Shown here: in pieces, positions 6,012 to 62,330 of the stretch
Layout: the number at the start of each line of letters is the position of its first letter
Numbering within the stretch: position 1 is the first letter of the stretch
Program-made: the position numbers and the translations under genes
Notes under the pieces: generated by a model
What the model was told of the DNA's origin: nothing
The model's input: only the letters and a program-made list of their open reading frames with translations
Database searches by the model: none
Assembly: GCA_000997385.1 (NCBI GenBank)
Contig: LCBT01000002.1
Span: forward strand, 6,315-70,314
DNA length: 64,000 nt
From: Candidatus Daviesbacteria bacterium GW2011_GWA1_41_61
Lineage (GTDB): Bacteria > Patescibacteriota > Microgenomatia > Daviesbacterales > UBA10151
Reading direction: 5' to 3'

Positions 6012-7029
6012 CCAGAAAGTCTGCCATCTGATAAAGAAGAAATCTCTTGTCCTCGGCAATATCCATTGTTTTAACAACTGCCTTGGCTTCTTCTACTAAC
6101 TGGGCAGCCTTCTTTTGGGAATATTCTAAAGCTCCGGTATCTACAAACACCTTTTTAATTTGTTCTAGTTCCTGCTGGCCAATCTTCCCTTTACCATAAT
6201 AGCTATCTAACACCTTCTTCTTCTCTGCAGAGGCTTTTTTCAGGGCCTGAATAAACAGCAATGTATTTTTTCCCTCTTCAATATCTGAGGTGACAGACTT
6301 GCCCAAAGTTGCCTCATCACCAAAAACTCCCAAAATATCATCCTGGATCTGAAAAGCTATTCCTAAGTTACTGCCAAACTCCGCAATATCATCAATAAGT
6401 TTTTTATTGGCTCCCCCAACTATTGCTCCTAAATGAAGCGGCCCACTGATAGTATAACGGGCGGTTTTTAAACGAAAGACTGCTAAGGCATCCGCTTCCC
6501 TTGCTGAATCTTTTTCATGAGGCAACTGCACATCAAGCATCTGCCCTAATGCCGTATCGAGCATGGCTTGAGCAAATAAAGAGAGGGCCTGATTTTTTTC
6601 CTGATCAGGGAAATTGCTCTGAGAAATTGATCTCACAGCCAAAAAGTAACCAATATCGCCCAAGCAAATAGTCTGAGAGATGGCGTAATGATCCCCACCT
6701 AAGGCCTTATAAACGGTTGGTTTACCTCTTCTTAAGGGAGAGAGGTCAATAATGTCATCATGAGCTAGGATTGCAGTCTGGAAGATTTCAAAGGCCACAG
6801 CCGCCTTGAGGATATCCGCATTTTCCTTCCCTCCCGCCATCTCATATCCCAGCTTAACCAAAGCTCCTCTCAACCTTTTTCCACCTTCTGAAGCCTGGAT
6901 AAAAACTTTGTTCAAACTTATAAGTTTGGGACTCACTGAAGCTACTTCCTTACTCCAACTTTGGAAGAACTTCTCCATCTCCTCATTAATTTCAGAAGCA
7001 GCTGTTTCAAGGTAAGTAAGGAAATCCAT
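5995..7029 (-). CDS. polyprenyl diphosphate synthase (FPP/GGPP synthase family)
   Basis: Two Asp-rich motifs: LAHDDIIDLSPLRRGKPT and FQIQDDILGVFGD. Confidence 0.7.
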   Translation of the reverse strand: MDFLTYLETAASEINEEMEKFFQSWSKEVASVSPKLISLNKVFIQASEGGKRLRGALVKLGYEMAGGKENADILKAAVAFEIFQTAILAHDDIIDLSPLRRGKPTVYKALGGDHYAISQTICLGDIGYFLAVRSISQSNFPDQEKNQALSLFAQAMLDTALGQMLDVQLPHEKDSAREADALAVFRLKTARYTISGPLHLGAIVGGANKKLIDDIAEFGSNLGIAFQIQDDILGVFGDEATLGKSVTSDIEEGKNTLLFIQALKKASAEKKKVLDSYYGKGKIGQQELEQIKKVFVDTGALEYSQKKAAQLVEEAKAVVKTMDIAEDKRFLLYQMADFLVSRKK

Positions 7030-7114
7030 GTAATACTACTTTAACCACAAAAACCTTTTGTTATATAGAATGCACAGATCTTAGCATTCGGTCTTTTTCC
7101 TGTCAATCTTGCGC

Positions 7115-7143
7115 TTGACCCCGAGAGAGAGGACAGTTAAAAT
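7115..7143 (+). promoter_or_regulatory. putative sigma-70-like promoter for ispG (TTGACC-17nt-TAAAAT)
   Basis: -35 TTGACC at 7115-7120, a 17-nt spacer, and -10 TAAAAT at 7138-7143, about 25 nt upstream of the ispG start. Confidence 0.35.
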
Positions 7144-7168
7144 GCTTTAGTGCTCACTTATATCACAG

Positions 7169-8353
7169 ATGATCAAAATCTCTTTTCTCCGTTTTAAAAC
7201 CAGGCCGGTTAAAGTTAAAAATTTAGTGATTGGTGGTGATAATCCAGTAGTGGTACAAACTATGTGTACTGAGTATACCGAGAACGTACCAGCTGTGGTA
7301 GAACAAATTATTGCCCTTCATCAAGCCGGAGCAGAACTTATCAGAATCACCGTCCCCTCTTTAAAAGATGCCGAACATGTGGCAGAGATTAAAAAACTTC
7401 TCAAGAAAAAATACCAGGATGTGCCTTTGGTAGCTGATGTTCATCATTTTGGTTCGGATATTGCCATTAAAACTGCTGAGGTAATGGATAAAATCCGTAT
7501 TAACCCCGGCCTTTTTGTCTTTAAAAAACCATCCGGAAAATTGGAATACTCTAAAACCGAGATTGAGGCAGAATTAGCCGAGATCGAAAAAGCTTTGCTG
7601 CCGGTTTTGGCAACCTGTAAAAAACATGGTACAGCTATGAGGATAGGAGTAAACCATGGCAGTTTATCCGAGAGATTAAAGATAATGTATGGAGACACTC
7701 CCCAAGGCATGGTGGAATCAGCTATGGAATATCTAAAAATTTGTCAAAGGAACCACTTTCAAGAGCTGGTTATCTCTTTAAAGGCGAGCAAAGTAAAAGT
7801 AATGATTGAGGCCAATAGGTTAATGGTCCAAAGGATGGTAGAAGAAGGCATGAACTATCCCCTACACTTGGGAGTTACCGAGGCAGGAGCAGGGCAAATG
7901 GGACGGGTAAAAGGAGTGGTAGGCATTGGTACTCTCCTAGCAGAAGGTATCGGTGATACTATCCGAGTCTCCCTTTCAGAGGACCCTATAAATGAGCTTA
8001 GTGTTTGTTATGATCTACTCCAATCTTTAGGACTAAGAAGAACTAAACTGGAACTTATTGGCTGTCCTACCTGTGGCAGAACCCGTTTTGACCTGCCACC
8101 TATGTTAGCTAAAGTAGAGACAGAGTTTGGACATTTAAGTAATCTTTCTATTGCCGTCATGGGTTGTATTGTTAACGGTCCGGGTGAAATGGCTGATGCA
8201 GATTACGGGATGATGGGCCAGGAAGAAAAAACAGTAACTATCTTTCGGGGCCAAACTTTAATTAAACCTAATGTTCCCCAAGACCAAGCTTTAACAGTTT
8301 TAAAAGAGCTTATTCAAGCTGATGGAAAATGGATCGAAACAAATAAGGAGTAA
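7169..8353 (+). CDS. ispG: 4-hydroxy-3-methylbut-2-en-1-yl diphosphate synthase (IspG/GcpE)
   Basis: VKVKNLVIGGDNPVVVQTM N-terminus and GCPTCGRT [4Fe-4S] motif; length ~394 aa. Confidence 0.8.
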   Translation: MIKISFLRFKTRPVKVKNLVIGGDNPVVVQTMCTEYTENVPAVVEQIIALHQAGAELIRITVPSLKDAEHVAEIKKLLKKKYQDVPLVADVHHFGSDIAIKTAEVMDKIRINPGLFVFKKPSGKLEYSKTEIEAELAEIEKALLPVLATCKKHGTAMRIGVNHGSLSERLKIMYGDTPQGMVESAMEYLKICQRNHFQELVISLKASKVKVMIEANRLMVQRMVEEGMNYPLHLGVTEAGAGQMGRVKGVVGIGTLLAEGIGDTIRVSLSEDPINELSVCYDLLQSLGLRRTKLELIGCPTCGRTRFDLPPMLAKVETEFGHLSNLSIAVMGCIVNGPGEMADADYGMMGQEEKTVTIFRGQTLIKPNVPQDQALTVLKELIQADGKWIETNKE

Positions 8354-9413
8354 GTCTTTGACGGGTGGCACGAAGGAGAGATCTCGGGCGTCGACCGCAT
8401 CCCGACGTACGTCGGGAGAGGACGCACCTGAGATACCGAAGCGGCAGGATCCGTCAAAGGTAGTATGGCCTCAAAAATTACTTTTAGCCTCACCTCGGGG
8501 TTTTTGTGCTGGAGTAAGACGGGCTATCGATGCCTTAAACCGGCTGGTAGAAGCTCACCCCAGGCAAACCATTTATTGTTTTCACCAGATTGTCCATAAC
8601 ACTTATGTAGTCTCTGAATTTGAAAGCAAAGGTGTAAAGTTTGTAAACTCTTTAGAAGAGGTGCCAGAAAATAGCATTATAGTCTTTAGTTCACATGGAG
8701 TTTCTCCTCAAGTAAGACAGCAAGCTGAGAAGAAAAAGCTAAAAACTATTGATGCTACCTGTCCTTTTGTTACTAAAACTCACCTGGAGGTTAAAAAATA
8801 TGCTTCAGAGGGAGATAAGATCATCTATATTGGGCAATCCCATCATGATGAAGCAGTAGGTGCCACCGGAGAAGCTCCAGAAAGCACAGTGATTGTCCAA
8901 ACTCCAGAAGAGATAGAGGCTTTAGAAATTTCTCCTAGTCAAAAAGTAGCCTTAGTAACCCAAACAACACTATCCTTTGATGAAACAGAAGGCTTAAGAC
9001 AAGCTCTAAAGTCTAAATATCCCCATTTAATTGAGCCATCCCACTCAGATATCTGTATGGCTACCCAAAACAGGCAAAATGGGGTCAAAGAGTTGGTTCA
9101 ATCCGGGGCAAAGGTAGTCATAGTTTTAGGCTCAGCCAACAGCTCTAATTCTAATAAGTTAAAAAAAGTAGCTGAAAAAATGGGAGTAAAGGCTGTTTTA
9201 ATTGACGAAATTTCTGAGTTGGATTTAAGTTTAATAGAAAGTGTAGAGTGTGTTGGTTTAACAGCCGGGGCCTCTTTACCGGAAAATAAAATCACTAAAG
9301 CTTTAGAATGGTTTAAAGATCATGGTACTAAGACTATTGAAGAGATACTGGTAGCAGACGAATCTTCTATCTCACTGCCCACGGTAGATACTCATCAACC
9401 ATCTAAAGCCTAA
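8322..9413 (+). CDS. ispH: 4-hydroxy-3-methylbut-2-enyl diphosphate reductase (IspH/LytB); true start uncertain (ATG 8322 overlapping ispG, or TTG 8358)
   Basis: LLLASPRGFCAGVRRAID, HNTYVV and conserved Cys residues match IspH/LytB. The N-terminal ~45 aa is the Arg/Ser-rich translation of the GC-rich element. Confidence 0.75.
   Translation: MENGSKQIRSKSLTGGTKERSRASTASRRTSGEDAPEIPKRQDPSKVVWPQKLLLASPRGFCAGVRRAIDALNRLVEAHPRQTIYCFHQIVHNTYVVSEFESKGVKFVNSLEEVPENSIIVFSSHGVSPQVRQQAEKKKLKTIDATCPFVTKTHLEVKKYASEGDKIIYIGQSHHDEAVGATGEAPESTVIVQTPEEIEALEISPSQKVALVTQTTLSFDETEGLRQALKSKYPHLIEPSHSDICMATQNRQNGVKELVQSGAKVVIVLGSANSSNSNKLKKVAEKMGVKAVLIDEISELDLSLIESVECVGLTAGASLPENKITKALEWFKDHGTKTIEEILVADESSISLPTVDTHQPSKA
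8356..8459 (+). other. GC-rich (~63% GC) nested-hairpin element at the ispG/ispH junction; candidate structured RNA / cis-regulatory element
   Basis: Outer inverted repeat CTTTGACGG...CCGTCAAAG. Inner GCGTC...GACGC. A perfect 16-nt palindrome CCCGACGTACGTCGGG. A GAGATCTC palindrome. GC content is far above the ~38% background. Confidence 0.3.
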
Positions 9414-10207
9414 TTACTTTCAATGAAGATACTACTTTGGTTTTCAAAGACTAGATTGTGGAACTCCCAGTACTTGCCCTGATCTCCAGCACACCTGGCT
9501 GCTTCAGCAGCTTTTAAAGCTCCAAAATGAATTTGAGTTAAAGGAAAATCCCGGTAGTAAAGTTTGACCTTACCTGTATCTATATAGTCTTTCTTTAACT
9601 GAACAACAGTAGCTTTATAAAGTCTTTCGCAAAATGGGCACTGGTAATCAGAAAACTCTACTAAAGTAACTGAAGCTTGAGTATTTCCTAAAACCGGATT
9701 ATCTCCTGCTTTGACCTCCTTTTTTTCTTTACCAATCTCCCCATTTTGAGGGTTGCCGTCAACTAAGTAAGCCACCGATGAATCAGCCGTTTCCCAATTA
9801 CCCCCTTTTAATTCATATTCAATAGCATCTTTAAAAACGGTGTATGGTTGAGCTCCCTCAACCAGATGCCCATTGATCAAAACTGCCGGTGTTCCATTAA
9901 CTCCTAGCTTCACCCCATCCTCCTGATCAGCACTAACCAAAGAAGCTTTTTGCCCGGAGTCTAGGCAGCTGTCAAACTTTTTCTGATCTAAGCCTAAATT
10001 TTTAACCTGGGCCTTAATATTAGCTACAGCAAAATCAGCAGTTCCTTTTTGAGTCTGGGGGTTGTTGTCAGCAGCTTTGGCAGCTGGGACTTTAGCCTCC
10101 TTTTTTAAGGTAATCACTCCGCCCGAGACTAAAATTGCCAAAGCGATAATCACACTACCTAAAAGTACGGCTATGGGGGTAGTTAAGAAGGTATTTTTAT
10201 CTTCCAC
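9410..10207 (-). CDS. membrane-anchored DsbA-like thiol:disulfide oxidoreductase, apparently circularly permuted
   Basis: N-terminal TM helix. CxxC motif (FSDYQCPFCERL) sits in the C-terminal half. The GVNGTPAVLINGHLV segment, normally C-terminal in DsbA/BdbD, precedes it. Confidence 0.5.
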   Translation of the reverse strand: MEDKNTFLTTPIAVLLGSVIIALAILVSGGVITLKKEAKVPAAKAADNNPQTQKGTADFAVANIKAQVKNLGLDQKKFDSCLDSGQKASLVSADQEDGVKLGVNGTPAVLINGHLVEGAQPYTVFKDAIEYELKGGNWETADSSVAYLVDGNPQNGEIGKEKKEVKAGDNPVLGNTQASVTLVEFSDYQCPFCERLYKATVVQLKKDYIDTGKVKLYYRDFPLTQIHFGALKAAEAARCAGDQGKYWEFHNLVFENQSSIFIESN

Positions 10208-10247: not shown

Positions 10248-10859
10248 TTAGTTATATTGGTTTTGGGCAACCTCTACCCCTTTATTTAACAGAGTTTCTA
10301 TAGCTTCTACAGCGCTTTTGAGCATATGTTTCAACTTAGATTTTTCAGAAGGCAAAAAGGGCTCTAAAACAAAACGCTCTACATTAAAACTATCCATTTT
10401 ATGTTCACTTAAAACTGTTCTGCCAGAGGAAGGACCAATTCCTAATCTGACTCTGATAAACTTATCATCTCCCAAGCAGCTGATCACTGATTCCACTCCA
10501 TGATGCCCGGCAGCAGCCCCTCCTACTCTGATTTTAATCTTTCCCAGGGGCAAGTCTAGATCATCATGGATCACCACCACATCTTCTAAGGGAATTTGAT
10601 AGTAATCTGCCAGAAGTTTAACTGCCAGACCAGAATTGTTCATGTAAGTTTGAGGCTTTATTAAAATTAAGGATAAAGGAGAAGCGGTAAGGGGAAAGTT
10701 TATTTGTATAACCTCAGATTTAAATTTTTTCTCGCTGCTCCAGCTTAACCCTTCACTATTTATGCTATCCACTAATTTATCTACCACTTCAAATCCTAAA
10801 TTATGCCTGGTTCCTTGATATTTTTCCCCAGGGTTTCCCAGTCCAACCATTAATTTCAC
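10248..10859 (-). CDS. pth: peptidyl-tRNA hydrolase
   Basis: MKLMVGLGNPGEKYQGTRHNLGF N-terminal signature. Confidence 0.7.
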   Translation of the reverse strand: MKLMVGLGNPGEKYQGTRHNLGFEVVDKLVDSINSEGLSWSSEKKFKSEVIQINFPLTASPLSLILIKPQTYMNNSGLAVKLLADYYQIPLEDVVVIHDDLDLPLGKIKIRVGGAAAGHHGVESVISCLGDDKFIRVRLGIGPSSGRTVLSEHKMDSFNVERFVLEPFLPSEKSKLKHMLKSAVEAIETLLNKGVEVAQNQYN

Positions 10860-11268: not shown

Positions 11269-13002
11269 TCAATCTTTCTTATGTTGCTGCTGGTACATCT
11301 CTGTCAACTCTTTCACTGTTGTAGCATCTTCTGGCTCTTTATCTTCCCTAAACTTGATCAATCTGGGAAATCTTAGAGCATAACCCGCTTCTTTGCCCTC
11401 TTTTCCAGCAGTATGAATAGGGGATCTGGTGATCTCATCAGCTAATACCTCTATCACAATCTCCGGTTTAATCCAAACAGAAGGTTCCAAAATAGCATTA
11501 ACTCTGGCAGGTCTATGTTCTACCTTAATCTTATCAGCCCGGGCATGGATAGTCTTCCATTCCTCATCAGTTAAGCCCGTACCTATCTTAGAAACTGTCA
11601 CAAATTCATCCTTTTCCTTATCATAAACTCCTACCAATAAAGACCCCGCCCCAAACTTCGCCCTCTTGCCCCGTCCCCAAATATAACCTAAGATGACACA
11701 ATCAATGGTATCCTTCAGTTCTCCGGCAGAATGCCTTTTTAGCTTCACCCAATTAAAATTCCTGGCTCCAGCTTCATATTTGGAATCAGGCCTTTTGACC
11801 AACAACCCCTCTAAACCCTTGGTAATAGCATCATTAAACAGGTTATTAATCCTCTCCTCGGAAGCGGTTATTTCTCCGGATTGAGGCACCAAAATATCGT
11901 CAGACGAGACCACCTTTTTTAAAACCTCCATCCTCTCCTGTAAGGGCCTATCAATTAATGATTTGCCATCCACATACATAATGTCAAAGACAAAGGCTTT
12001 TAGAGGAAGTTTTTTCGCCATCTCTTCCACTCCATACTTACGCCTCCTCTTGGTAGTTTCCTGAAAGGGTAAAAATTCATCAGATTCCGGGTTAAAAGCT
12101 AAGGCTTCAGCATCTAAGATGGCACTTTTAGCCTTCACTTGTTTCTTCACTCCCTCCACAAGTTCTGGAAGCATGGCCGTCGTTTCCTCCAAGTTACGGG
12201 AAAAAATCCTTACATGGTCTCCATCTTTGTGCAATTCTGTCCGAAAGCCGTCGTATTTATATTGGACATGGGCCTGTCCCCCAAATTTAACAAGGATAGT
12301 CTTGGCATCAGGCAACCTTTCAGCAAGCTCAGGTCTTATTGGTCTCCCCACCGCTACATCCAGCTTTTTCACCCCTTGAAGCCCCTTCTGCCATAGTGTT
12401 TGACCGATTAGTCCTAAATCGGAAGTTCTATTGTATGCCTCCTCCAACTCTTTCCTTCTCTTTCTATCCCCCAGTTTTGTTTGGGCAAAGGCATCCAAAA
12501 GTGTGGGGTCTCCTACCCCTAACCTGCTGCTACCCAAAGGAATTCTTACTAGATGTTTAGCTCCTATCTCATCCACCTTACCCAATAAACCAGCTAAGAG
12601 GGTGGTCTTTTTCTCCACCGTCCCCTTACCAGAAGTTTCAGCAATCGCTCTTAAAGTTTCAAAAACTTCCTCAACTGTCAACTCGGTGCTTGTTATTTGT
12701 CTCTTGTTGCTAACTCGTTGGGCAACTAGCCCCAGATCTCCCACTCTTCCATACCCTTTTAACACCTCTTCTTTTTCTATGCCATAAGCTTTAGCAATAG
12801 CTGCAGCCACCAGCTTCTCACTCATCCCCATCTCTATCGGTTCATAAAAGGGTCCAACCCTCCCCTGTATCAAATAAGCCACCTTGGCTATTTCCTTAGC
12901 CTCAACTTGCTGGAAAAGCTGAGCCAGAATATCAATTAAAGCCAGCCTGGAGGAGGTGGCTTCCAGTTTTTCTAAATATGAAGTAAATTGAGCAAAGGTC
13001 AT
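11269..13002 (-). CDS. ATP-dependent DNA ligase (archaeal/eukaryal Lig-type with N-terminal DNA-binding domain)
   Basis: Adenylation motif KYDGFRTELHKD (KxDG), with downstream motifs III-VI and an OB domain; 577 aa. Confidence 0.7.
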   Translation of the reverse strand: MTFAQFTSYLEKLEATSSRLALIDILAQLFQQVEAKEIAKVAYLIQGRVGPFYEPIEMGMSEKLVAAAIAKAYGIEKEEVLKGYGRVGDLGLVAQRVSNKRQITSTELTVEEVFETLRAIAETSGKGTVEKKTTLLAGLLGKVDEIGAKHLVRIPLGSSRLGVGDPTLLDAFAQTKLGDRKRRKELEEAYNRTSDLGLIGQTLWQKGLQGVKKLDVAVGRPIRPELAERLPDAKTILVKFGGQAHVQYKYDGFRTELHKDGDHVRIFSRNLEETTAMLPELVEGVKKQVKAKSAILDAEALAFNPESDEFLPFQETTKRRRKYGVEEMAKKLPLKAFVFDIMYVDGKSLIDRPLQERMEVLKKVVSSDDILVPQSGEITASEERINNLFNDAITKGLEGLLVKRPDSKYEAGARNFNWVKLKRHSAGELKDTIDCVILGYIWGRGKRAKFGAGSLLVGVYDKEKDEFVTVSKIGTGLTDEEWKTIHARADKIKVEHRPARVNAILEPSVWIKPEIVIEVLADEITRSPIHTAGKEGKEAGYALRFPRLIKFREDKEPEDATTVKELTEMYQQQHKKD

Positions 13003-30404: not shown

Positions 30405-31286
30405 ATGTTACTTTTTAAAAAACTCACTTTTGCCTTACCTTGGCTAGTCTTTTTTACCATTGCTTGTAGCTATCTCCCTTCTCTTTACCAAGACCCTTAT
30501 TTTATTATCTCTACTGATTTTAATTTTTACCTCCAACTACTAACTTTAGTTGGCTTAATCTTGTTAAGTAGTTTCTTTTTTGTTATTTTTGTGACCCTTG
30601 CCTCTATTTTAAAAATTATCTTACCTGCTTGTTTATTAGCTTCTTTAATTCCCCTGCTTTTTTTAAATCCCCCTTCTAGTTTCCTTTTAACCGGAGGGGC
30701 TTTTTTATCTTTTACTGCTATCTCCCTGCTGTTACAAAAGGAGCTGGATCAGTATTTAACCTTTAAGGCTACTTCACTTCTTTCTCCTTCCATTAAACAA
30801 CTGGCCACTATTTTACTGTTAGTTATCTCAGTGATTTTTTATTTGGTAGCAGAAAAGGAAGTAAGCCAAAATGGATTTAAGATTCCCTCTTCCTTAATAG
30901 AGATGAGTTTAAGTCTCACCCAAACATCTCAAAGTTTAGAGGTTAGCCCCACCACAGCTGTTAATCAACCCCAGATTCCCCCTGAGCTGCTTAAGCAATA
31001 CGGAGTAGACCCAGCAGTTCTAGAAGAGCTGGATAAACCTCAAAACAAGCCTCAAAACACTATGGCAACTTTAGTAGAAAGCCAAATTAACAACTTAATC
31101 AAACCCTACCAGCAATTTATTCCTTTAGTTTTAGCTCTGCTGCTATTTGTTACCCTTAAATGGCTGGCTTCTATTTTATCCATCCTTCTTACTCCCCTGC
31201 TGTGGTTTATCTTCTGGATTTTAGAAAAAACAGGCTTTACTAAATACGAGAAAGAGATGAGAGAAGTCAAAAAGCTGATTATTTAG
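30405..31286 (+). CDS. hypothetical polytopic membrane protein
   Basis: Multiple TM helices; Pro/Gln-rich central loop. Confidence 0.3.
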   Translation: MLLFKKLTFALPWLVFFTIACSYLPSLYQDPYFIISTDFNFYLQLLTLVGLILLSSFFFVIFVTLASILKIILPACLLASLIPLLFLNPPSSFLLTGGAFLSFTAISLLLQKELDQYLTFKATSLLSPSIKQLATILLLVISVIFYLVAEKEVSQNGFKIPSSLIEMSLSLTQTSQSLEVSPTTAVNQPQIPPELLKQYGVDPAVLEELDKPQNKPQNTMATLVESQINNLIKPYQQFIPLVLALLLFVTLKWLASILSILLTPLLWFIFWILEKTGFTKYEKEMREVKKLII

Positions 31287-53838: not shown

Positions 53839-54825
53839 CTAAATCCCCTGGTTGTTTATAACATCATACAGGGAAGCTAAATCTAAATATTGCTGCCTGT
53901 TTACTAAAGCAGGAGCTTTACTATCTGTCCTACTGAACAGTTGGCCTAAAGTCTGGACACTTCCCCCTCCTAAGATAGACTGAAGTGAGAAAGATAGGTT
54001 ATATGATTTAGCTAAATTTTTCCGTCCTGATTTAACATTTAACTGGGTGACTAAATATTGAGCTGAAAATTTATTTTTAGCGCATCGCAGTTGATCACCG
54101 CTTTTTTTGCTGTTGTTACAATTTTTGGTGGCATCATCAATAATTTGCACCATTTTAGTGGTCGTCAAAGGAGCAAAGGGGGTAAACCAGGAGGTATCAT
54201 CTATTGCCTCAAGCCAGGAGTTAATATCACTTTGGAGATAAATTTGATGTTTGTTCCAGTTGCGCCAAAAACCTATTGTCCCTTCATATTCAGTGACAGT
54301 GCCAAAACTTAAATCAAAGATCACAGTTTTTCCTTGGAACTCGTTACCAGCAGAGATGGGGAAGGTTACCTCAAAGTTGTAGGTTTTAGTACTTGCGGGA
54401 TTAATGGTTCCCAAAACTACCCCATCAAAACCGGCACTATCACCAAAAAAGTCAGTCACGCTTTTGGATCCAGTGGGGCTACCATCTCCATAAACTGGAA
54501 CCAAGCCCTCTTTAATGATGATCCCCAGGATTGTTTCTATCTTCAGGTCAGCTCCTACCCCACCTTTTTTGATGGCCTTAACTGCCACTAAATAGCTTTG
54601 GCTACCGCCATTTTGGACATCAACACTTCTGTTCTCCACTCCTCCTGGTGCCCAGTTGTTGACTACAAAGATGGGCTCACTAGGAGGAAGATGAAAATCA
54701 ACCAGCAACTCTCCAAAGGCTCGAACGGTGGAGCTTCTAAAAAGGTTTTTAAAACCACCATTTGCCACAAAAATACTCACCATAATTAGTAGGGCGATAA
54801 TAATTGTTAATAATCTTTTCTTCAT
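53839..54825 (-). CDS. TasA/camelysin (peptidase M73)-like secreted protein with extra C-terminal domain
   Basis: SipW-cognate-type signal peptide. A motif NEFQGKTVIFDLSFG resembles the TasA C-terminal beta-strand signature. Confidence 0.4.
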   Translation of the reverse strand: MKKRLLTIIIALLIMVSIFVANGGFKNLFRSSTVRAFGELLVDFHLPPSEPIFVVNNWAPGGVENRSVDVQNGGSQSYLVAVKAIKKGGVGADLKIETILGIIIKEGLVPVYGDGSPTGSKSVTDFFGDSAGFDGVVLGTINPASTKTYNFEVTFPISAGNEFQGKTVIFDLSFGTVTEYEGTIGFWRNWNKHQIYLQSDINSWLEAIDDTSWFTPFAPLTTTKMVQIIDDATKNCNNSKKSGDQLRCAKNKFSAQYLVTQLNVKSGRKNLAKSYNLSFSLQSILGGGSVQTLGQLFSRTDSKAPALVNRQQYLDLASLYDVINNQGI

Positions 54826-54828
54826 CTT

Positions 54829-56367
54829 TTAACAGCTGCCATTATTACTTATCCCCTTGGTTGGAGCAGTACAAGTTGTCCAAAGATTGGCAGCATCATC
54901 TTGTCGGCCGATCACTTGGTCAGAAGTATCTGTTCCAATATAAGCGTGAGAATCAATAACTTTTCCATCAGGATTTTTTAAGAAGACGGTCTCTGAACCA
55001 CTGTTGTTTAACATCGGAGAGGTAATATCAAGGACTTTAAAGGTGCCGTTACCAATAGTGCCTAAGGAGGTTAAGCTTTTAGTGTTATTGGCAGCATCAA
55101 CGATGGTCCAGCCGTTCAAATTGATCGGGTCACCGCCTGCATTATAAACTTCTACCCATTCATCATTTAAAGGGGAGCTTAATTTATAGACAAACTCATT
55201 TAAGACTAAATTTGTACCATACCCGGAAGTTGGAGTTTCCCGGACAATAAAGTCGGTCGGTTCAAAGTTGGAACCAAGGGCCGAATCTTTACCAACTGGA
55301 ACTCTTTCTATTGACTGATTTAGAACGGGGGTCAGTCCAGTGGTACCTGCCCAGTGCACAGTATCAATGACATTATTTTGAGCATCTAACAGCTGAAGGA
55401 ACCCTACATCAATATTCAGTTGTCCTCCTAAATTGGCCACGGTTGATCCGTGATCATGATAGCACTTATTATTACCAAAAATTGAGGTGTCATGTGCCAG
55501 CAGTACAAATTTACCAGCTTCAGCAGTGATGTTGGTAGCTGTAACCAAGTCAATAATATTGGTCCCATCGGTAATCTTAAAGTTTTTTAAGTTAACATCA
55601 GTGGGAAAGCCATTATAAACCTCTATCCATTGAGCTTCTTTTTGCCCTTGGAAACAGCTGCTATCAGGTAACACTTCATTGATTACTAAAGTTTGGGCAA
55701 TGGGAGGAGCAAATTGGCCAGCAGCGAAAGTATTATTTAGACTTTGGCCACTGTCAGAAAAAAAGGCCCAGGTCTGGCTAGTTTGAAAAAAAGTTACACT
55801 TAAAAAGGCCAATATTACTGGAAAGCTAACTTTGGGCATCGCTGGTAAAGGATCTTTTTTACTTTCCCTCCAGATAGTTAAAGTTTCTGCTACCAGGACA
55901 TAAAGAGTTGGTAAAATCACTAAAAGCAACAACCCTAATTTAGTTTTGGCAAAGCCAATAATAAAGCCTAAAAAAGGCAGGCTGAAGATAACCTTGCCCA
56001 CGATATTTTTTTCACTAACCCCTTTTCCATCAGCACTATTGTTAGCATCCCCCTTGGTCTGATAAACAAAAGAGGAATTAGGTTGTTGAATTTGAATAAT
56101 CCGGTGGGTGACAAAGTTAGTACTACCAGCTATTTTATAGCTGACAATATCTCCCCGGGAAAATTTAGGACTGTTGGGAGAAGAACTTTGAGGGGAAACT
56201 AGCACTACTGAACCAGTCTTAATAGCTGGCTCCATCGAACCTGATAAAACCACTAGTAATTTATTTCTCCCAAAAAGAGGAAGTGTTGAGAAAACTAAAA
56301 GGAAAACTACCGCCAAAAAGGCGACCACAAGAGCTGTCTTAAAGATTATTAGAGTTTTCCCAAGCAC
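54829..56367 (-). CDS. sipW: SipW-type (ER/archaeal-type) signal peptidase I fused to two lamin-tail domains (LTD)
   Basis: VVLSGSMEPAIKTGSVVLV catalytic Ser motif. Two LTD signatures: TLVINEVLPD...EAQWIEVYN and LVLNEFVYK...DEWVEVYN. Confidence 0.55.
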   Translation of the reverse strand: MLGKTLIIFKTALVVAFLAVVFLLVFSTLPLFGRNKLLVVLSGSMEPAIKTGSVVLVSPQSSSPNSPKFSRGDIVSYKIAGSTNFVTHRIIQIQQPNSSFVYQTKGDANNSADGKGVSEKNIVGKVIFSLPFLGFIIGFAKTKLGLLLLVILPTLYVLVAETLTIWRESKKDPLPAMPKVSFPVILAFLSVTFFQTSQTWAFFSDSGQSLNNTFAAGQFAPPIAQTLVINEVLPDSSCFQGQKEAQWIEVYNGFPTDVNLKNFKITDGTNIIDLVTATNITAEAGKFVLLAHDTSIFGNNKCYHDHGSTVANLGGQLNIDVGFLQLLDAQNNVIDTVHWAGTTGLTPVLNQSIERVPVGKDSALGSNFEPTDFIVRETPTSGYGTNLVLNEFVYKLSSPLNDEWVEVYNAGGDPINLNGWTIVDAANNTKSLTSLGTIGNGTFKVLDITSPMLNNSGSETVFLKNPDGKVIDSHAYIGTDTSDQVIGRQDDAANLWTTCTAPTKGISNNGSC

Positions 56368-56400
56368 CTCAACACCTCCTTTCTAAACCACTGGCCTCCA

Positions 56401-56985
56401 CTACTGCGAAGCGTCTTGGTTTAAGGTAACTGTCCAATCGCTATCCACACTATCACCTTGATACTCATTCCCGGCATCAGACCTGAAGGTAACAGTCAGA
56501 TCTAAGTTGTGATTAGTATTAAGGTCGGTCAAGGCTAAATTATCCAAACCTGAAGATTTAAGATCATCAAGGTCTGTCCAACCGTTGCCATTGTTGTTTA
56601 TCACTTGAGACAAAACACTAACCCCGCCATAGTCCAAAGTTGTAAGCTCCAGGACCTTGTCTAAGGGGTTGGTGATATCAGAGTTGGTATTAACCAAAGC
56701 TACTTCGGCGTGACTGGCCGCTATTGACCCTGTATTTTTAAGTCTTAACTGTCCGGAAACAGAAGCACCCGGGGCAAGATTAGTCCCCCCAAAGCTGGCG
56801 GTAACATTATCCTGATCAGTCTCTGGAGTATTATCAGAAAGTTTTAAATCCAAAGTACCGGCAGCAAAAACATTATCATTACTGGTTCCCTGATTGCTAA
56901 AGTAAGCAAAAGTGGCAACTGAAATGATGGCCAAAGAAGCCAAAATACTGGCTGAGGAGAGAACTATTTTTGTATTGATTACCAT
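56401..56985 (-). CDS. TasA/camelysin family protein
   Basis: AYFSNQGTSNDNVFAAGTLDLKLSD matches the TasA N-terminus (AAFND...TFASGTLDL). C-terminal NEYQGDSVDSDWTVTL. Confidence 0.55.
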   Translation of the reverse strand: MVINTKIVLSSASILASLAIISVATFAYFSNQGTSNDNVFAAGTLDLKLSDNTPETDQDNVTASFGGTNLAPGASVSGQLRLKNTGSIAASHAEVALVNTNSDITNPLDKVLELTTLDYGGVSVLSQVINNNGNGWTDLDDLKSSGLDNLALTDLNTNHNLDLTVTFRSDAGNEYQGDSVDSDWTVTLNQDASQ

Positions 56986-57118
56986 TTTCTCACCCCCTTT
57001 TAGTGAAAACTCACTTGATCTTTTGTAGAGGAATTACAGGATAAATTCAAGTAGGACTAAATGAATACCACTAGATCAGTTTTTACTTTTGGCTGAAAAA
57101 ATAGGTTATTACCATTCT

Positions 57119-57412
57119 TTAATCGTGTTTGACAAATGCTTGATCAAAAGTTGGATCGTTTTGTCTTAAATATTCAATAAGCATGGCAGCATGCTCTTTT
57201 TCCTCATCACGGTTATGAGCTAAAACCTTTTTAAGGGGCTCATCCTCACTGGCCTGAATCCTCTCTTCATAAACATTGATGGCATCAAGTTCCTCGATTA
57301 AAGATTGTCTGGCCCGGGCTAAATTTTTAGCTTGCTCATCTTCTTTTTGGGCATCAAAACCCAAGTTATATGTCATATATATCACCTCCTGGTAGATTGA
57401 ATGATAGCACAC
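57119..57412 (-). CDS. small ferritin-like diiron-motif protein (EncFtn-like); likely starts at internal Met (MTYNLGF)
   Basis: E...EExxH pattern (YEERIQ...DEEKEHAAML) in an ~85-aa helical protein. Confidence 0.3.
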   Translation of the reverse strand: MCYHSIYQEVIYMTYNLGFDAQKEDEQAKNLARARQSLIEELDAINVYEERIQASEDEPLKKVLAHNRDEEKEHAAMLIEYLRQNDPTFDQAFVKHD

Positions 57413-57520
57413 TTAGTAGTAGTATTGGAGTCTGAGGATGTATATATCATTACCAGGCACAAGTATACTTTCATCGTCCTATCTTGTGGTTGTCTACTTT
57501 TTCTACTATGATACTTTTAA

Positions 57521-57886
57521 ATGATCGAAGTTAGACTGGCAATTGAAGACTCTAAAGATTCGGGTCTTTCCCTGGAGGTGGTAAGGTCTCTTACCACGGA
57601 AGAGGTTGAATCTCTCATCCAGGTAAAGTTAAAGGTACTCTACCCTACAAAGGTCATTAGACAGGAAATTTCTGAAGCAAAGCGGTGCATACTGATAAGT
57701 GATTTGGGACTACTTGAAGAAGTGAGACCAATGCAGGTGATAGTAGCAGATCCGCCACCATCAAAAGAAGAGATTCGCTTCACTAAGGAAAGGGAGAGAG
57801 CTCAAAGATTAGCTGAGGAAATAAGATATCTTTCAGGGTTGGAACGACCAAAGGGGAGACACCCTACTCACCGGCATCCCATCTAA
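57521..57886 (+). CDS. hypothetical protein
   Basis: ORF only. Confidence 0.25.
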   Translation: MIEVRLAIEDSKDSGLSLEVVRSLTTEEVESLIQVKLKVLYPTKVIRQEISEAKRCILISDLGLLEEVRPMQVIVADPPPSKEEIRFTKERERAQRLAEEIRYLSGLERPKGRHPTHRHPI

Positions 57887-58020
57887 GCTTTTTGCATAGT
57901 AACTTGCTTATAAGTACCAACTGTAAATAAGCTTTTGAGAATGTTATTCAAATGGGGTTGATAAGAGTAAGATGGAAAAAAATAAAGGGATTATAAACCC
58001 AACCTGACTTTCTCCAAACT

Positions 58021-58680
58021 TTATTTTAAATCCTTTTTCATTTCTTCAAATTCTTTCTTACCTATTTCTCCACGAGCGTAACGCTCTTTTAGAATTTCTA
58101 AAGGAGTTTTTTCTTTATCGCTACTTTTCCCTGAACCACCCAGATAGCGAATAAGGGCAACTACGCCAAGAATTATAAGAATCCAGAATATAATCATAAA
58201 GAGCCATCCTAAGATTCCGAATCCCCAGCCCATCATATTACCCCAATCACCATATCCCATCATAGGGTTTCCACCTCCTCTCATCATCCACATCATCGGC
58301 ATAAAACCCACTCCACAACCGCTATTTCTTTTACCCATAGCAATATGCATCTGTTCTTCGCCTTCCTCACCCATCATGCTTATCATCATCTGATTCATGG
58401 CAACATGTCTTTGGGTATCGCCGATTGATTGACCCATAAAATACTCGCCAAGCACTGCATAATTGTCGTCAGTAAGGTCTTTACATTCAAACTGTTTTGT
58501 TTGTAATTTTTCCCAAATAACTTTGCCTTCTGCCTCCTCAGAAGCAGTATGGTTATCAGTTGGGGATGTTGTTTGTGCCTGCACTGACCCTCCACTTATT
58601 ATAAAAACCAAAAGAAAGAAGGCCGCTATCAGAATGGTAATTTGTCTCATATTAATCAAGAAATTGGAAGAAATTTCCAA
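58021..58680 (-). CDS. Met-rich membrane protein with C-terminal SHOCT domain (probable start MRQITIL at 58650)
   Basis: Signal/TM region. Methionine-rich motifs (MNQMMISMMG, GFMPMMWMMRGGGNPMMGYGDWGNMMGWG). Second TM helix. SHOCT-like LKERYARGEIGKKEFEEMKKDL. Confidence 0.4.
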   Translation of the reverse strand: MEISSNFLINMRQITILIAAFFLLVFIISGGSVQAQTTSPTDNHTASEEAEGKVIWEKLQTKQFECKDLTDDNYAVLGEYFMGQSIGDTQRHVAMNQMMISMMGEEGEEQMHIAMGKRNSGCGVGFMPMMWMMRGGGNPMMGYGDWGNMMGWGFGILGWLFMIIFWILIILGVVALIRYLGGSGKSSDKEKTPLEILKERYARGEIGKKEFEEMKKDLK

Positions 58681-58737
58681 GTTTAGTCTGATCTTTTGTA
58701 ACTACACCCAATAACTTTTGCTTTTGTGTAGCCGTAC

Positions 58738-60198
58738 TTAAACTCCACAGCCTCCTCCTTGGCTTGGTGGTGGCTCAACTATACCGTTTTCTGTCAGCCA
58801 TTTCTTCACTGTTTGCGCGCCGAAAGCCGAGGAGATGTCTTTACTAAGCACCAACCTGGCATCTATATCTTTATAATCCTTACCCTCTTTATTTTTAAAG
58901 TAAAGAGCAATATCATAGTAATTACCGGGAAACCAAAAAGCATTGATATATTTTGCCGCCTCATACATTTCATCTTCAGTTGCCCCGTTTGCCGCCATCA
59001 ACTCAAGTATTCCGAGTAATGCCATGCCATGGTTACAGTCGGGAAATGCTGTTGAATTACCACAACATGGCCTGTAAATATTTGAGGCAACTTTATTTAC
59101 CAGCTCTTCTTGTTCGGCGGTGAATGGCATCAAAGCCCTTTTTGAGTAATAGTCAGTTGCATCACCTTTGGCAAGCGTCCACCCGCCAGTTGAGGCAAAG
59201 TTGCCTACTTGTCCCTGGCCGTATTTAACCATGTCACCTGCTGTCAATATTTTGGTTTTATTACCAAGTCCAAAGGCCCAAAAAAAGTTTAATAAGAAAT
59301 AGGAGTTACTTTGGTCGATTTTGATCGTCTTATCAGAGCCACGAATCAAGATCTCTTCCTGTTCCGGTGTTAACGGTTGTCCAGATTGCTGGTAAACTTG
59401 TTTAAATTTTTCCAAGTCAATTACCCCCATCTCAAGCATCTTAGGGCCGATATTGCCATATGTAGCATTCATCTCATATCCCCCTGCAGGGTTAATCTGA
59501 GCAAAGACATCGGCTGAGTTAACTTGAGTTTTTGAAACATTATTAGATACTGCAACTACCGTATCATTTTGGGTTTTAGCTCGATATTTGATCGGAAGTC
59601 TGGGAATAGCGTAAACAATAAAAATAAACAAAACTAACAGCAATAGGGGCTGCAATTGAGAAAGACTTTTCCTGTTAATATTGAGGGCCAATTTATTATT
59701 GTGGAAGGATATTAAATTCTTTTTCGGAATTTCACAAAGTCCTAGAACACTTTTTGAGTATTGCCAGATTGCATACAGAAGTATAAGAGCTGAGAAAATT
59801 TTTATTTCCAATCCCCCAAAAGGAAAAGCTGCCAAAGATGCAGCAATGCCAAGGGTTGGAAGAAGGAAAGCACTGCAAACCGAGCATCCTGTCACAGCTG
59901 CGGAAAAAAATAAAGATCCAAGAGTATGTAAAAACGTTGACTTAGATCCTTGCCTTCTCTCTTCTACTACATAGAAAAGAAAAGAAATAGTAACTCCTAT
60001 AAGTAAGGCGTTAATAATACTTAGGACTACCTGGGACCATACATACCAGGTGGTATTAGACTGCCAAAAAGCATCCCAGGTAGTTCTTTGGATAAGGATA
60101 AGATAATACAGAAATAAAACATTAAAAGTGACGGCCGCTGTAATAACCCAAGCATAAGATTTATTAAAAACTTTCGTTAAAGCAGTTTGGAAAATCAT
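58738..60198 (-). CDS. membrane protein with Cys-containing TM segment and Cys/His-containing extracytoplasmic domain
   Basis: ~5 TM helices (TGCSVCSAF) followed by a ~300-aa soluble domain with RPCCGNSTAFPDCNHG and a C-terminal GGGCGV. Confidence 0.35.
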   Translation of the reverse strand: MIFQTALTKVFNKSYAWVITAAVTFNVLFLYYLILIQRTTWDAFWQSNTTWYVWSQVVLSIINALLIGVTISFLFYVVEERRQGSKSTFLHTLGSLFFSAAVTGCSVCSAFLLPTLGIAASLAAFPFGGLEIKIFSALILLYAIWQYSKSVLGLCEIPKKNLISFHNNKLALNINRKSLSQLQPLLLLVLFIFIVYAIPRLPIKYRAKTQNDTVVAVSNNVSKTQVNSADVFAQINPAGGYEMNATYGNIGPKMLEMGVIDLEKFKQVYQQSGQPLTPEQEEILIRGSDKTIKIDQSNSYFLLNFFWAFGLGNKTKILTAGDMVKYGQGQVGNFASTGGWTLAKGDATDYYSKRALMPFTAEQEELVNKVASNIYRPCCGNSTAFPDCNHGMALLGILELMAANGATEDEMYEAAKYINAFWFPGNYYDIALYFKNKEGKDYKDIDARLVLSKDISSAFGAQTVKKWLTENGIVEPPPSQGGGCGV

Positions 60199-60386
60199 TT
60201 TTTTAGTATGCTAGAAATTGATGATATCTGCCGCATCTGGCGCCACCATATGGATACCTAAAATTTTTCTATTTTCAGCGTTTATGACCATCTTGATAAC
60301 TCCTCTGGTGTCTTTAATTGCACCTGCCTTTTGAATGACTATTCAATATAATAGTTATCTTCTTGTTGTCTGTCAAGAAATAATCA

Positions 60387-60881
60387 GTGAAAGCGAAAAG
60401 GGGTTGTATTTTCCGGGGAAGAGTGTATCATAAAAGTATGAATAATAAGGTGATGATCGGACTAATTGTAATTATTATTCTTTTCGCTGGCAGCTTTTTC
60501 TTACTCAATAAAAATAATTCTACTACTCCGCAGTCAAATTCCTCTCAGAATACTCAAGTTTTACCCTCTCCTACGAACGCTCAAACTACTTCGGGAGCAG
60601 AGCCACAACAAACTCAGAATGTAGTAACATACACAGTAAGTGGTTTTTCTCCAGCAACCTTAACGGTAAAAGCCGGGACTACAGTTACATGGGTAAATAA
60701 AAGTGGGAGTAATTTTTCTCTTAACTCCAATCCACACCCGGTACATACTGATTATCCGCCATTAAATATTGGCATAACAGGAGACGGACAATCGAAAAGC
60801 CTCACCTTTGATAAGCTTGGAACGTATGGCTATCACAACCATCTTAATCCAAGCGATACAGGAGAAGTTATTGTACAATAA
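60387..60881 (+). CDS. secreted cupredoxin-like domain protein lacking the canonical Cys ligand
   Basis: Signal anchor plus TVTWVNKSG...PHPVH...GTYGYHNHLNP, which resembles the amicyanin/plastocyanin pattern but with Cys replaced. Confidence 0.35.
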   Translation: MKAKRGCIFRGRVYHKSMNNKVMIGLIVIIILFAGSFFLLNKNNSTTPQSNSSQNTQVLPSPTNAQTTSGAEPQQTQNVVTYTVSGFSPATLTVKAGTTVTWVNKSGSNFSLNSNPHPVHTDYPPLNIGITGDGQSKSLTFDKLGTYGYHNHLNPSDTGEVIVQ

Positions 60882-60954
60882 GGATAATTCACTATGTGTT
60901 ACAACTGTGGCTGGCAATCGCCAAAATAAAGTCAAGTTATGAAAATGGGGCTAA

Positions 60955-62199
60955 CTAAGGGAGAAGCAAAACTGCATTAGCAGCGTTGACACGGCCGGAA
61001 GACCAATACATTCCAGTTCCGGGAATTTTATCCGCTGTTCCCTCAAGCCTTGTTCGAACTTGAGAAGCAGAAGTTCCATAAGGCGTTGACCAAATAAGGG
61101 CGGCTACAGCTGATGTCATTGGAGTAGCCATAGAAGTTCCTGAGCCAAAATCATAGCCTAGTGACTTATTTATTTTATATGGGTGGTTGGGGAATGTAGA
61201 AAAGATGTCAACACCAGGAGCCGCTACATCAACCCATTTTGCTCCGTAGCTAGAAAATGTTGCTTTTTGGTCTTTATTATTAGTGGCAGCTACAGCGATG
61301 GCATTTGTATAAGCGGCAGGGTAAGTTTTTGAGGGATTACCCGAATTACCGGCCGCTGCCACCACCACAACACCTTTACTCCAAGCATAGTTCACTGCAT
61401 TTTCCAAAGTAAAAGATTTTACAGAGCCTCCCAAGCTCATATTGATAACTTTGGCTCCATTATCTGCCGCCCAAGTAATACCACTGGCTATCCAGGAATA
61501 AGCGCCCGAACCGTTGTCATTTAACACTTTACCATTTATTAATTGGCAACTAGGACAACCACTGGCTACTCCAGTTCCATTATTGGTAACGGCTGCCACT
61601 ATTCCTCCCACATGAGTCCCATGTCCATACATATCATCATATCCTGATGATGAACCTGTGAAATCTCTATTTAAGACAATCTTTGGAGATAAATCCTCAT
61701 GGTCTTGGTCAATGCCGGTATCTAAAATAGCAACTTTCACTCCGCCGGCAGTTGTCTCCCAAGCGGTAGGGCCATCAATATCTGCATCAACTACCCCGGT
61801 AATACCTTTAATAATTTGTCCGGTGTTTTCCAGTCCCCATTGATTACCAACAAAGTATGTATCATTTGGGATAAAGAAAGCTTGCCCAATATAGTCTAAC
61901 TCCGCATAGTCTACGTGAGGGTTCCTGGACAATGCAGCAACTACTTTTTCTTCTGCTGTCTGAGGCACCTGCAACACTAAAACTCCAAGAGCTTCAAGTT
62001 TATTAACTACCCGTGCTCGATTATTTCTTAACAAATTATCCCTATCCGCCTGTGAAACCCCGTCCTTAAACTTTATAAGGACTTGACCGGGTACATGATT
62101 GTTATTATCCTGAGCTTTTGCTAAAGGAGAAAACAGGTTAAAGAAGCCTAAAAGGAGAATAAATAGTAAAGTAATTGAGAAGATGAATAATTTTTTCAT
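60955..62199 (-). CDS. subtilisin-like serine protease (peptidase S8) with signal peptide and propeptide
   Basis: Catalytic triad contexts VAILDTGID (Asp), HGTHVGG (His) and GTSMATP (Ser). Confidence 0.65.
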   Translation of the reverse strand: MKKLFIFSITLLFILLLGFFNLFSPLAKAQDNNNHVPGQVLIKFKDGVSQADRDNLLRNNRARVVNKLEALGVLVLQVPQTAEEKVVAALSRNPHVDYAELDYIGQAFFIPNDTYFVGNQWGLENTGQIIKGITGVVDADIDGPTAWETTAGGVKVAILDTGIDQDHEDLSPKIVLNRDFTGSSSGYDDMYGHGTHVGGIVAAVTNNGTGVASGCPSCQLINGKVLNDNGSGAYSWIASGITWAADNGAKVINMSLGGSVKSFTLENAVNYAWSKGVVVVAAAGNSGNPSKTYPAAYTNAIAVAATNNKDQKATFSSYGAKWVDVAAPGVDIFSTFPNHPYKINKSLGYDFGSGTSMATPMTSAVAALIWSTPYGTSASQVRTRLEGTADKIPGTGMYWSSGRVNAANAVLLLP

Positions 62200-62330
62200 A
62201 TCAATAACTGAAATTATTGTAAATAAACTTGAGAGATAAATCAAGCAGCAGTCTTGTCTCATACAAAATAAGTATGAAATTAAGGTAAGCTCTCATACAA
62301 AAAGAGCATAAAAATATAGTCCAATTAAAA

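Follow-up and report, generated by a model that had tools for sequence, protein, structure and literature searches.

Within a 64,000-nucleotide stretch of contig LCBT01000002.1 from Candidatus Daviesbacteria bacterium GW2011_GWA1_41_61, hereafter the window, positions 9410-10207 of the minus strand hold a complete open reading frame (ORF) for a protein of 265 residues, with a GTG start codon at 10207-10205, a TAG stop codon at 9412-9410 and an N-terminus that matches those of its homologues (MEKSEAFLSTP...). Its product, which we call cpDsbA, is 100% identical to a protein of this bacterium annotated as 'DSBA oxidoreductase', and the exact sequence occurs on 16 contigs; no other ORF of the window matches either half of a DsbA domain. 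We find that cpDsbA carries these two halves in inverted order behind a membrane anchor, and that it is very probably a genuine natural circular permutant of the DsbA family. Directly upstream and on the same strand lies pth (10248-10859), which encodes a peptidyl-tRNA hydrolase (Pfam Pept_tRNA_hydro, E 7.5e-59); as only a 40-nt gap separates the two, pth and cpDsbA are likely co-transcribed. On the other side, ispH (8322-9413, plus strand) is convergent with cpDsbA, as an earlier note on this DNA had stated, but rather than merely abutting, the 3′ ends of the two genes overlap by 4 nt and their stop codons are interleaved.

The canonical order of DsbA elements (β1, CxxC, α1, β3, helical domain, cis-Pro loop, β4, β5, α7) is not found in cpDsbA, where it is inverted. 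Two Pfam profiles match the protein, each as two stretches: Thioredoxin_4 (PF13462) with 119.3 bits (cut-off 23.2) and DSBA (PF01323) with 59.6 bits (cut-off 25.6), and with 119 bits against a cut-off of 23.2 for the former, chance is not an issue. Positions 3-94 of the Thioredoxin_4 profile fall on residues 168-261, and positions 118-190 of the DSBA profile on residues 57-129. A phmmer comparison with the sequences in the PDB likewise produced two non-colinear pieces for Corynebacterium diphtheriae DsbA (4PWP, 4PWO), for TsdA (7UNN) and for BdbD. Because the Pfam and phmmer pieces are non-colinear, the chain must run from a transmembrane (TM) anchor through the canonical C-terminal half and a linker to the canonical N-terminal half. 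By these matches, cpDsbA is homologous to the DsbA family (Thioredoxin_4/DSBA) and differs from it in topology. No NCBIfam model describes it, the top match being an unrelated lipoprotein family far below cut-off.

We combined these matches with a model computed by AlphaFold2 (AF2), as a monomer and from the family alignment, to delimit the parts of the protein, all of which lie on the minus strand. The N-terminal membrane anchor (LTTPIAVLLGSVIIALAILVSGGVI; 10112-10186, residues ~8-32) is a single TM segment by hydropathy scan and a helix at residues 10-27 in the model. It is followed by a flexible tether rich in Lys, Ala, Pro and Gln (10043-10111, residues 33-55), where the predicted local distance difference test (pLDDT) is 48-54 at residues 31-50 and below 50 at 41-48; its length and sequence differ between homologues. 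Module B, the canonical C-terminal half (9803-10042, residues 56-135), was delimited by the DSBA match and the predicted secondary structure, and comprises α4 (57-71), α5 (75-84), α6 (88-100), the Thr-cisPro loop, β4 (108-111), β5 (114-117) and α7 (122-133). The loop motif T106-P107 (9887-9892, codons ACA CCG), part of a G-T-P triplet, precedes strand 108-111 in the model, as expected of a presumed cis-Pro loop before β4; proline occupies this column in nearly all of 828 A-B domain units drawn from all proteins and loci that we collected. Helix α5, the canonical H5, bears C81 (9965-9967). The natural linker from the old C-terminus to the old N-terminus (9716-9802, residues 136-164) has a pLDDT of 93-97; such natural linkers span ~30-45 residues, and this one includes a structured insert, GGNWxxxxxxVxYLVDGNPxNGEI, which only part of the family has and the shorter members (~244 aa) lack. 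Module A, the canonical N-terminal half (9425-9715, residues 165-261), rests on the Thioredoxin_4 match and the predicted secondary structure, and consists of the β1 region, a strand at 180-186, CPFC, α1 (191-209), β3 (214-220), α2 (230-241) and α3 (246-261). The active-site motif C190-P-F-C193 (9629-9640, codons TGC CCA TTT TGC) sits at the N-terminus of α1, and C239 (9491-9493) on α2, the canonical H2. While other family members end in ...IF (residue 261), cpDsbA has four additional C-terminal residues, IESN, which together with the stop codon occupy 9410-9424. The earlier note had described the same inversion inside a single ORF behind a TM anchor, and both points hold: the matches form two non-colinear pieces, and there is one hydrophobic segment where the anchor was placed. 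The motifs that it quoted, KKFDSCLDSG, GVNGTPAVLINGHLVEG, ELKGG, VTLVEFSDYQCPFCERL and YWEFHNLVFENQ, are all present; only its account of the end needs correction, as eight residues (SSIFIESN) lie between ...ENQ and the stop codon.

The AF2 model has a mean pLDDT of 90.6 and a predicted template modelling score (pTM) of 0.79; residues 55-262, including the linker, score 93-99, and uncertainty is limited to the N-terminal tether. Its elements follow each other in the order α4, α5, α6, β4, β5, α7, linker, β-strand, α1, β3, α2 and α3, with none lost or doubled, and the module boundaries are complementary to those in canonical relatives. The model matches DsbA structures only, over the full length for 1UN2 and over half the length for 3GMF, 3EU3, 3F4R and others. 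The former, PDB entry 1UN2, is the crystallised laboratory permutant of E. coli DsbA, cpDsbA_Q100T99, reportedly from the work of Hennecke, Sebbel and Glockshuber in 1999 and of Manjasetty and colleagues in 2004, and its linker is said to have 5 residues (GGGTG). It is the top Foldseek match, with a target-normalised TM-score of 0.62 as opposed to at most 0.41 for every natural-order DsbA, and as a monomer superposes on the model over 165 residues at 17% sequence identity. In an hhalign comparison with the E. coli DsbA sequence and the GGGTG linker, in which the numbering of C30, C33, P151 and T99/Q100 checks out, the family profile stays colinear past the engineered junction for 105 columns, compared with 48 columns on wild-type E. 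coli DsbA. As residue ~56, the start of the structured domain, faces Q100 of E. coli DsbA and the C-terminus of the family lies just past α3, this alignment places the natural and the engineered cuts in one and the same helical-domain loop, α3/α4, at residues 99/100 in E. coli numbering. The permutation site of 1UN2 corresponds to residue 100 of 1A2J (PMC2395249). A chain built in this way, from TM helix and flexible tether through the C-terminal half and a linker of 30-45 residues to the N-terminal half, would fold intramolecularly into a normal DsbA domain.

The permuted order is not a peculiarity of this genome. When homologues were clustered at 90% identity and the best 120 hits counted, 93 clusters, which form the family of cpDsbA and are referred to here as PERM1, encode proteins of 233-276 aa in which G-T-P (around residue 107) comes before CPFC (around residue 175); the other 27 are two-domain proteins of 374-464 aa with the order CxxC..GTP..CxxC..GTP. 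The PERM1 clusters stem from independent assemblies (NCBI, JGI, ENA and Logan). In an alignment of 60 of their members, all start at the same place, the C-terminus ...NQxxIF is fixed, and C190, P191, C193, G105, T106, P107, C81 and C239 are invariant, with F192 conserved in at least 90%. The gene context is also retained, pth being directly upstream of cpDsbA in four related metagenome-assembled genomes (MAGs) of Patescibacteria, Daviesbacteria and Microgenomates (L001-L004), one of which (L004) keeps the full order of ligase, speD, pth, cpDsbA, ispH, ispG, polyprenyl synthase and UPF0047.

The wider family suggests how such a chain may have come about. Residues 48-258 of cpDsbA are colinear, at 45% identity, with residues 173-382 of a two-domain protein (P0004), a segment that comprises the end of its first unit, the linker and the start of its second. 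Among 1.84 billion representatives, HMMER turned up 62,867 relatives of the profile (E ≤0.001), and the best 150 of these are almost all multi-unit arrays of 417-1196 aa with 3-7 matched stretches, the best of which covers the profile colinearly over B, linker and A; one permuted representative (P0010) is among these 150. We also scored module order with two hidden Markov models (HMMs) in sampled GTDB species genomes, and among the 80 loci listed, which are a sample and not a census, most have the canonical A-B order, Chloroflexota and Myxococcota have arrays of two, three and four units, and at least 8 have B-A. Such tandem multi-domain proteins are the intermediates that the textbook model of permutation by duplication calls for. 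By analogy, a DsbA domain downstream of the anchor would have been duplicated in tandem (anchor-A-B-A-B), after which the first A would have been deleted in frame and the last B cut short. Since tandem arrays are abundant and cpDsbA is colinear with their middle, this route fits, and permutation by duplication is the likely origin. Long tandem arrays of complete DsbA domains are in fact common (P0241-P0388; loci L012, L013, L023, L026, L031, L039, L043 and L061).

Permuted DsbAs outside PERM1 fall into two further groups. PERM2 encompasses 12 clusters and three loci (L005, L006 and L042), whose sources are Daviesbacteria, Saccharibacteria and, in one case, a MAG labelled as Gammaproteobacteria; its members end in ...TKSNGxG(I/L/V), and the best PDB match of a PERM2 model is also 1UN2. 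PERM2 and the canonical DsbAs of the Candidate Phyla Radiation (CPR) have two insertions in common, GGDE and an extension of the β4-β5 hairpin, both of which PERM1 lacks, and one PERM2 protein (P0121) is, in modules A and B respectively, 64% and 55% identical to canonical CPR DsbAs, on a par with the 66% and 51% to other PERM2 members, and 51% and 40% identical to PERM1. An anchor motif, FL(S/T)TPxAILxGS...GGxIK, is common to PERM1, PERM2 and the canonical CPR DsbAs. The MAG of the unexpected label is 'uncultured Gammaproteobacteria' (L005, contig CAZZEB010000002.1), and its PERM2-type DsbA could reflect a binning or labelling error, or horizontal transfer. PERM3 consists of 18 clusters, on contigs of up to 840 kb, of proteins mostly 210-228 aa long (two are short and one has 256 aa), with the C-terminus ...KQxEWSxx and an anchor of the classic positive-inside kind. 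DPANN-type archaeal DsbAs (such as those of Diapherotrites, Aenigmarchaeota and Altiarchaeota) are among its close canonical relatives, and its hosts are probably DPANN archaea.

In two neighbour-joining trees of de-permuted units (100 bootstraps, Kimura distances, ~173 columns), PERM1 is monophyletic with bootstrap values of 94 and 99, PERM3 is so with 96, and PERM2 groups with the canonical CPR DsbAs with 70 and 100; PERM2 and PERM3 each nest among canonical relatives. A single origin of all permuted forms is rejected by these trees, PERM1 with PERM2, PERM1 with PERM3 and all permuted forms together each being monophyletic in 0 of 100 bootstraps. The cuts of the three families lie within a few residues of each other, in the α3/α4 loop. 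At least two, and probably three, independent permutation events are well supported but not proven, as the tree method, with Kimura distances over ~173 columns, is simple. Our default reading is that the permutation is a near-neutral re-threading, tolerated because the α3/α4 loop is permissive. A bolder version, which we find doubtful, is that this loop is a natural permutation hotspot that has been hit independently at least three times (in PERM1, in PERM2 within the canonical CPR subfamily, and in PERM3), perhaps under selection. All three families are membrane-tethered enzymes of ultra-small, episymbiotic lineages, and in the permuted chain the tether is attached at the tip of the helical domain instead of the thioredoxin core, with the CxxC half synthesised last; if selection were involved, a tether at this tip and a CxxC half that emerges last in secretion might alter presentation to a partner or to substrates.

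The two invariant cysteines outside the active site bear on both the fold and the location of the protein. Of the 828 units, 477 have both the H5 and the H2 cysteine, 346 have neither, and only 5 have one without the other (Fisher's exact p ~6e-232, for units that are not phylogenetically independent). C239 aligns with Cys97 of Wolbachia α-DsbA1 (PDB 3F4R), which the structure of a C97A/C146A mutant (PDB 3F4T) marks as the second-disulfide residue; a second disulfide has been described in the helical domain of α-DsbA1 (PMC3839904), and in MtbDsbA a Cys140-Cys192 disulfide joins H2 and H5 (PMC3792642). C81 (H5) and C239 (H2) probably form a structural disulfide as in these two proteins, which would tie the C-terminal to the N-terminal segment of the chain beside the new termini. 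The pair argues for an oxidising, hence extracytoplasmic, location.

With respect to function, cpDsbA is, from its homology, most likely a membrane-tethered extracytoplasmic thiol-disulfide oxidoreductase. C190-P-F-C193 at the start of α1, which the T106-cisP107 loop adjoins, would exchange a disulfide with substrate cysteines. We lean towards an oxidase role, in which disulfides would be introduced into exported proteins via C190/C193 as by BdbD, MdbA and MtbDsbA; this is the best guess because, among characterised proteins, cpDsbA is most closely related to DsbA-type enzymes from monoderm bacteria and α-proteobacteria.

The order of the halves, its conservation, the predicted fold, the break site and the recurrence in other lineages were all computed here, and the inverted order, the ~93 clusters and the predicted fold support what the earlier note had proposed, a circularly permuted, membrane-anchored DsbA-like protein. 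It had also suggested structure prediction and a comparison with homologues as checks; the former returned a DsbA fold with an engineered permutant as best match, and the latter a permuted order kept with the same C-terminus in ~93 clusters, and so not a local rearrangement. A number of points weigh against this picture or parts of it. The predicted fold is partly dependent, and not fully independent, evidence, the training of AF2 having included 1UN2 and many DsbAs, and activity, redox direction and location are argued from homology. The flanks of the CPR-type anchor average 1.2 Lys and Arg with 1.0 Asp and Glu on the N side and 2.0 Lys and Arg on the C side, so that the positive-inside rule for an N-in orientation is not clearly obeyed, while the archaeal PERM3 anchors do fit it; this says nothing specific on permutation, because canonical as well as permuted CPR DsbAs show the same pattern (1.2-2.0 Lys and Arg with 1.0-1.6 Asp and Glu on the N side, 2.0-2.3 Lys and Arg on the C side), but leaves the extracytoplasmic topology of cpDsbA unproven. 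Among the cysteine-containing membrane ORFs of the window that were tested, there is no candidate for DsbB, VKOR or CcdA: the only multi-TM ORFs with at least two cysteines lie at 30405-31286 and 58738-60198, and neither matches Pfam. No DsbB, VKOR or CcdA is found beside the homologues either, whose neighbours are DUF3105, a ZIP transporter, NUDIX, Ku and similar. Finally, none of the 388 collected proteins is a tandem precursor of more than 300 aa with a CPR-type anchor motif, and the exact route to the permuted form is for this reason one that we infer, backed by analogy in the wider family.

These points have to be set against the alternatives. The permuted gene might be a decaying remnant of a tandem two-domain DsbA gene, with which its colinearity to the middle of two-domain DsbAs would agree, or a misassembly of two gene halves, and its product non-functional. 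Local misassembly as the source of the permuted order is effectively excluded on sequence grounds, because the identical protein occurs on 16 contigs, ~93 clusters share order and C-terminus, and the pth-cpDsbA synteny is kept; as these clusters come from independent assemblies and have the same precise N- and C-terminal boundaries, as catalytic and structural residues are invariant, and as the halves are exactly complementary with no secondary-structure element missing or doubled, we consider a remnant or artefact barely conceivable. Also highly improbable, though a little less so, is that the half-domains pair with those of a second chain into a domain-swapped dimer or oligomer, so that cpDsbA would be an obligate multimer and not a monomeric permutant. 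Domains that are permuted or truncated can form dimers by swapping, there are DsbA-like trimers and dimers (such as α-DsbA2, ScsC and DsbC, among the structure hits), and the AF2 model is that of a monomer only; but this monomer is confident throughout, linker included (pLDDT 93-97), and reaches its pTM of 0.79 despite the TM helix and the tether, it superposes on monomeric 1UN2 over 165 residues, and the natural linker of ~30-45 residues goes far beyond the five reported for the engineered one. More room is left for a protein of the same fold with a different job, which might be that of a reductase, an isomerase, a maturation factor reserved for a single substrate, or a redox protein that faces the cytoplasm. 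CPFC and the Thr-cisPro loop leave the redox direction unfixed (C. diphtheriae TsdA also has CPFC), no DsbB or VKOR is nearby, the charge distribution around the anchor is ambiguous, genes for DUF3105 and ZIP metal transporter proteins follow the permuted gene in L001-L003 (identified by Pfam in L001 and L003), and Daviesbacteria also have proteins of the canonical DsbA family, with which the permuted form may split labour. We still regard such a role as unlikely, given that the closest characterised relatives are DsbA-type (BdbD, C. diphtheriae DsbA and TsdA, α-DsbA1) and that the structural-disulfide cysteine pair argues for an oxidising compartment.

As a natural circular permutant, cpDsbA can be compared with several known systems. 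To our knowledge, all circular permutants of DsbA described so far were engineered; on a naturally permuted DsbA, the searchable literature yielded only references to engineered proteins or unrelated work, which is an absence from that literature and not proof, and for DsbA in the CPR it yielded nothing. The engineered cpDsbA_Q100T99 has the same fold, the same chain order, termini in the same α3/α4 loop and the old termini joined by a linker. It differs in being a laboratory construct of a gammaproteobacterial periplasmic DsbA, only 17% identical to the natural protein, which adds a TM anchor, the Thr-cisPro loop, CPFC, the cysteine pair and a longer, partly structured linker. According to a later summary of the work of Hennecke and colleagues, 65 of the 189 possible DsbA sites were examined, and the functional permutants had no termini within certain helices and strands (PMC11348275).

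The closest relatives by sequence, at 32-38% identity per half, are the DsbA-like oxidoreductases, membrane-anchored or lipoproteins, of monoderm bacteria (BdbD, 3EU3; M. tuberculosis DsbA, Rv2969c; C. diphtheriae DsbA, 4PWO; TsdA, 7UNN) and α-DsbA1 (3F4R). Like cpDsbA, they belong to Thioredoxin_4 and have a CPxC motif, the Thr-cisPro loop is present in several (as seen from the mutant entries α-DsbA1 T172V and S. aureus DsbA T153V), MtbDsbA also has an N-terminal anchor and the H2-H5 structural disulfide, and α-DsbA1 a disulfide in its helical domain. In contrast to cpDsbA, however, they have the canonical order with the CxxC half first, and only about half of cpDsbA can be superposed on them. 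The tandem multi-domain DsbAs of Chloroflexota, Myxococcota and others, with two to at least four units and likely more, are colinear with cpDsbA over the stretch where unit 1 ends and unit 2 begins, but keep complete units and have other anchors or signal peptides, none of them with a CPR-type anchor. In the thioredoxin-like permutations of Qi and Grishin, core thioredoxin elements are said to have moved between distantly related families. These cases represent the same phenomenon in the same fold class, whereas cpDsbA is cut in the helical insertion specific to DsbA, inside a single sequence family whose canonical, tandem and permuted forms can still be aligned. That other circular permutations exist in the thioredoxin-like fold is stated, as far as the citing text goes, in PMC3091736 (citing the classification of Qi and Grishin, 2005).

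Regarding the surroundings of the gene, three of the related loci (L001 4469-5790, L002 6732-8131 and L003 6721-8126) have a same-strand gene pair after the permuted DsbA, encoding a 1-TM protein with two cysteines and a 7-TM protein, identified in L001 and L003 as DUF3105 and as a metal transporter of the ZIP family; the matching position in the window is taken by the convergent ispH. As listed, the ispH ORF (8322-9413, plus strand) overlaps ispG by 32 nt and has a charged, low-complexity N-terminal extension of ~50 residues, with the LytB domain beginning at residue 54 and tblastn matches in relatives at residues 43-49, and the true start codon may be further downstream. Two genes from cpDsbA, at 11269-13002 (minus strand), lies the gene of an ATP-dependent, archaeal/eukaryotic-type DNA ligase with three domains (DNA_ligase_A_N, _M and _C), an arrangement also kept in L003 and L004; in an archaeal locus (L010), a permuted DsbA is followed by Ku and then by a similar ligase (6620-8512).

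Further away, at 53839-62262 (minus strand), is a cluster of probable secreted or cell-surface proteins, among them a lamin-tail-domain protein (54829-56367), a camelysin-like M73 peptidase (56401-56985), a SHOCT-domain protein (58021-58680) and an S8 subtilase with a fervidolysin-like prodomain (60955-62262), all on the minus strand. They are possible substrates of a disulfide-forming enzyme, with cysteines in only some. Within the same region, the ORF at 58738-60198 (minus strand) encodes a protein of 486 aa with ~6 TM segments and 7 cysteines, without a Pfam match at E ≤0.01. One of its hydrophobic segments contains a CxxC motif (TGCSVCSAF), and its soluble C-terminal domain bears the motif RPCCGNSTAFPDCNHGMA. 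Since its neighbour at 60387-60881 (plus strand) is a cupredoxin-like protein, this membrane protein may be related to copper or redox processes.

DsbA is a classic model for circular-permutation folding studies, and cpDsbA provides a natural counterpart of an engineered permutant, with the same break point and conserved in the ~93 clusters of PERM1. The evolutionary series is still largely visible, from canonical through tandem to permuted, with about three apparently independent origins at one loop. It can now be tested whether laboratory maps of permissive sites foretell where a fold can be re-threaded in evolution, whether a pre-existing structural disulfide makes the cut tolerable, and whether a secreted oxidoreductase is affected by where its tether sits or by which half is made first. 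On the practical side, permuted proteins are easily mis-described, because half a domain, twice over, is all that domain annotation and sequential structure aligners see. While the evolutionary and structural interest of cpDsbA is moderate to high, its function is probably ordinary, and for the biology of Daviesbacteria the consequence is modest: the gene probably encodes a working, re-threaded disulfide-bond enzyme.

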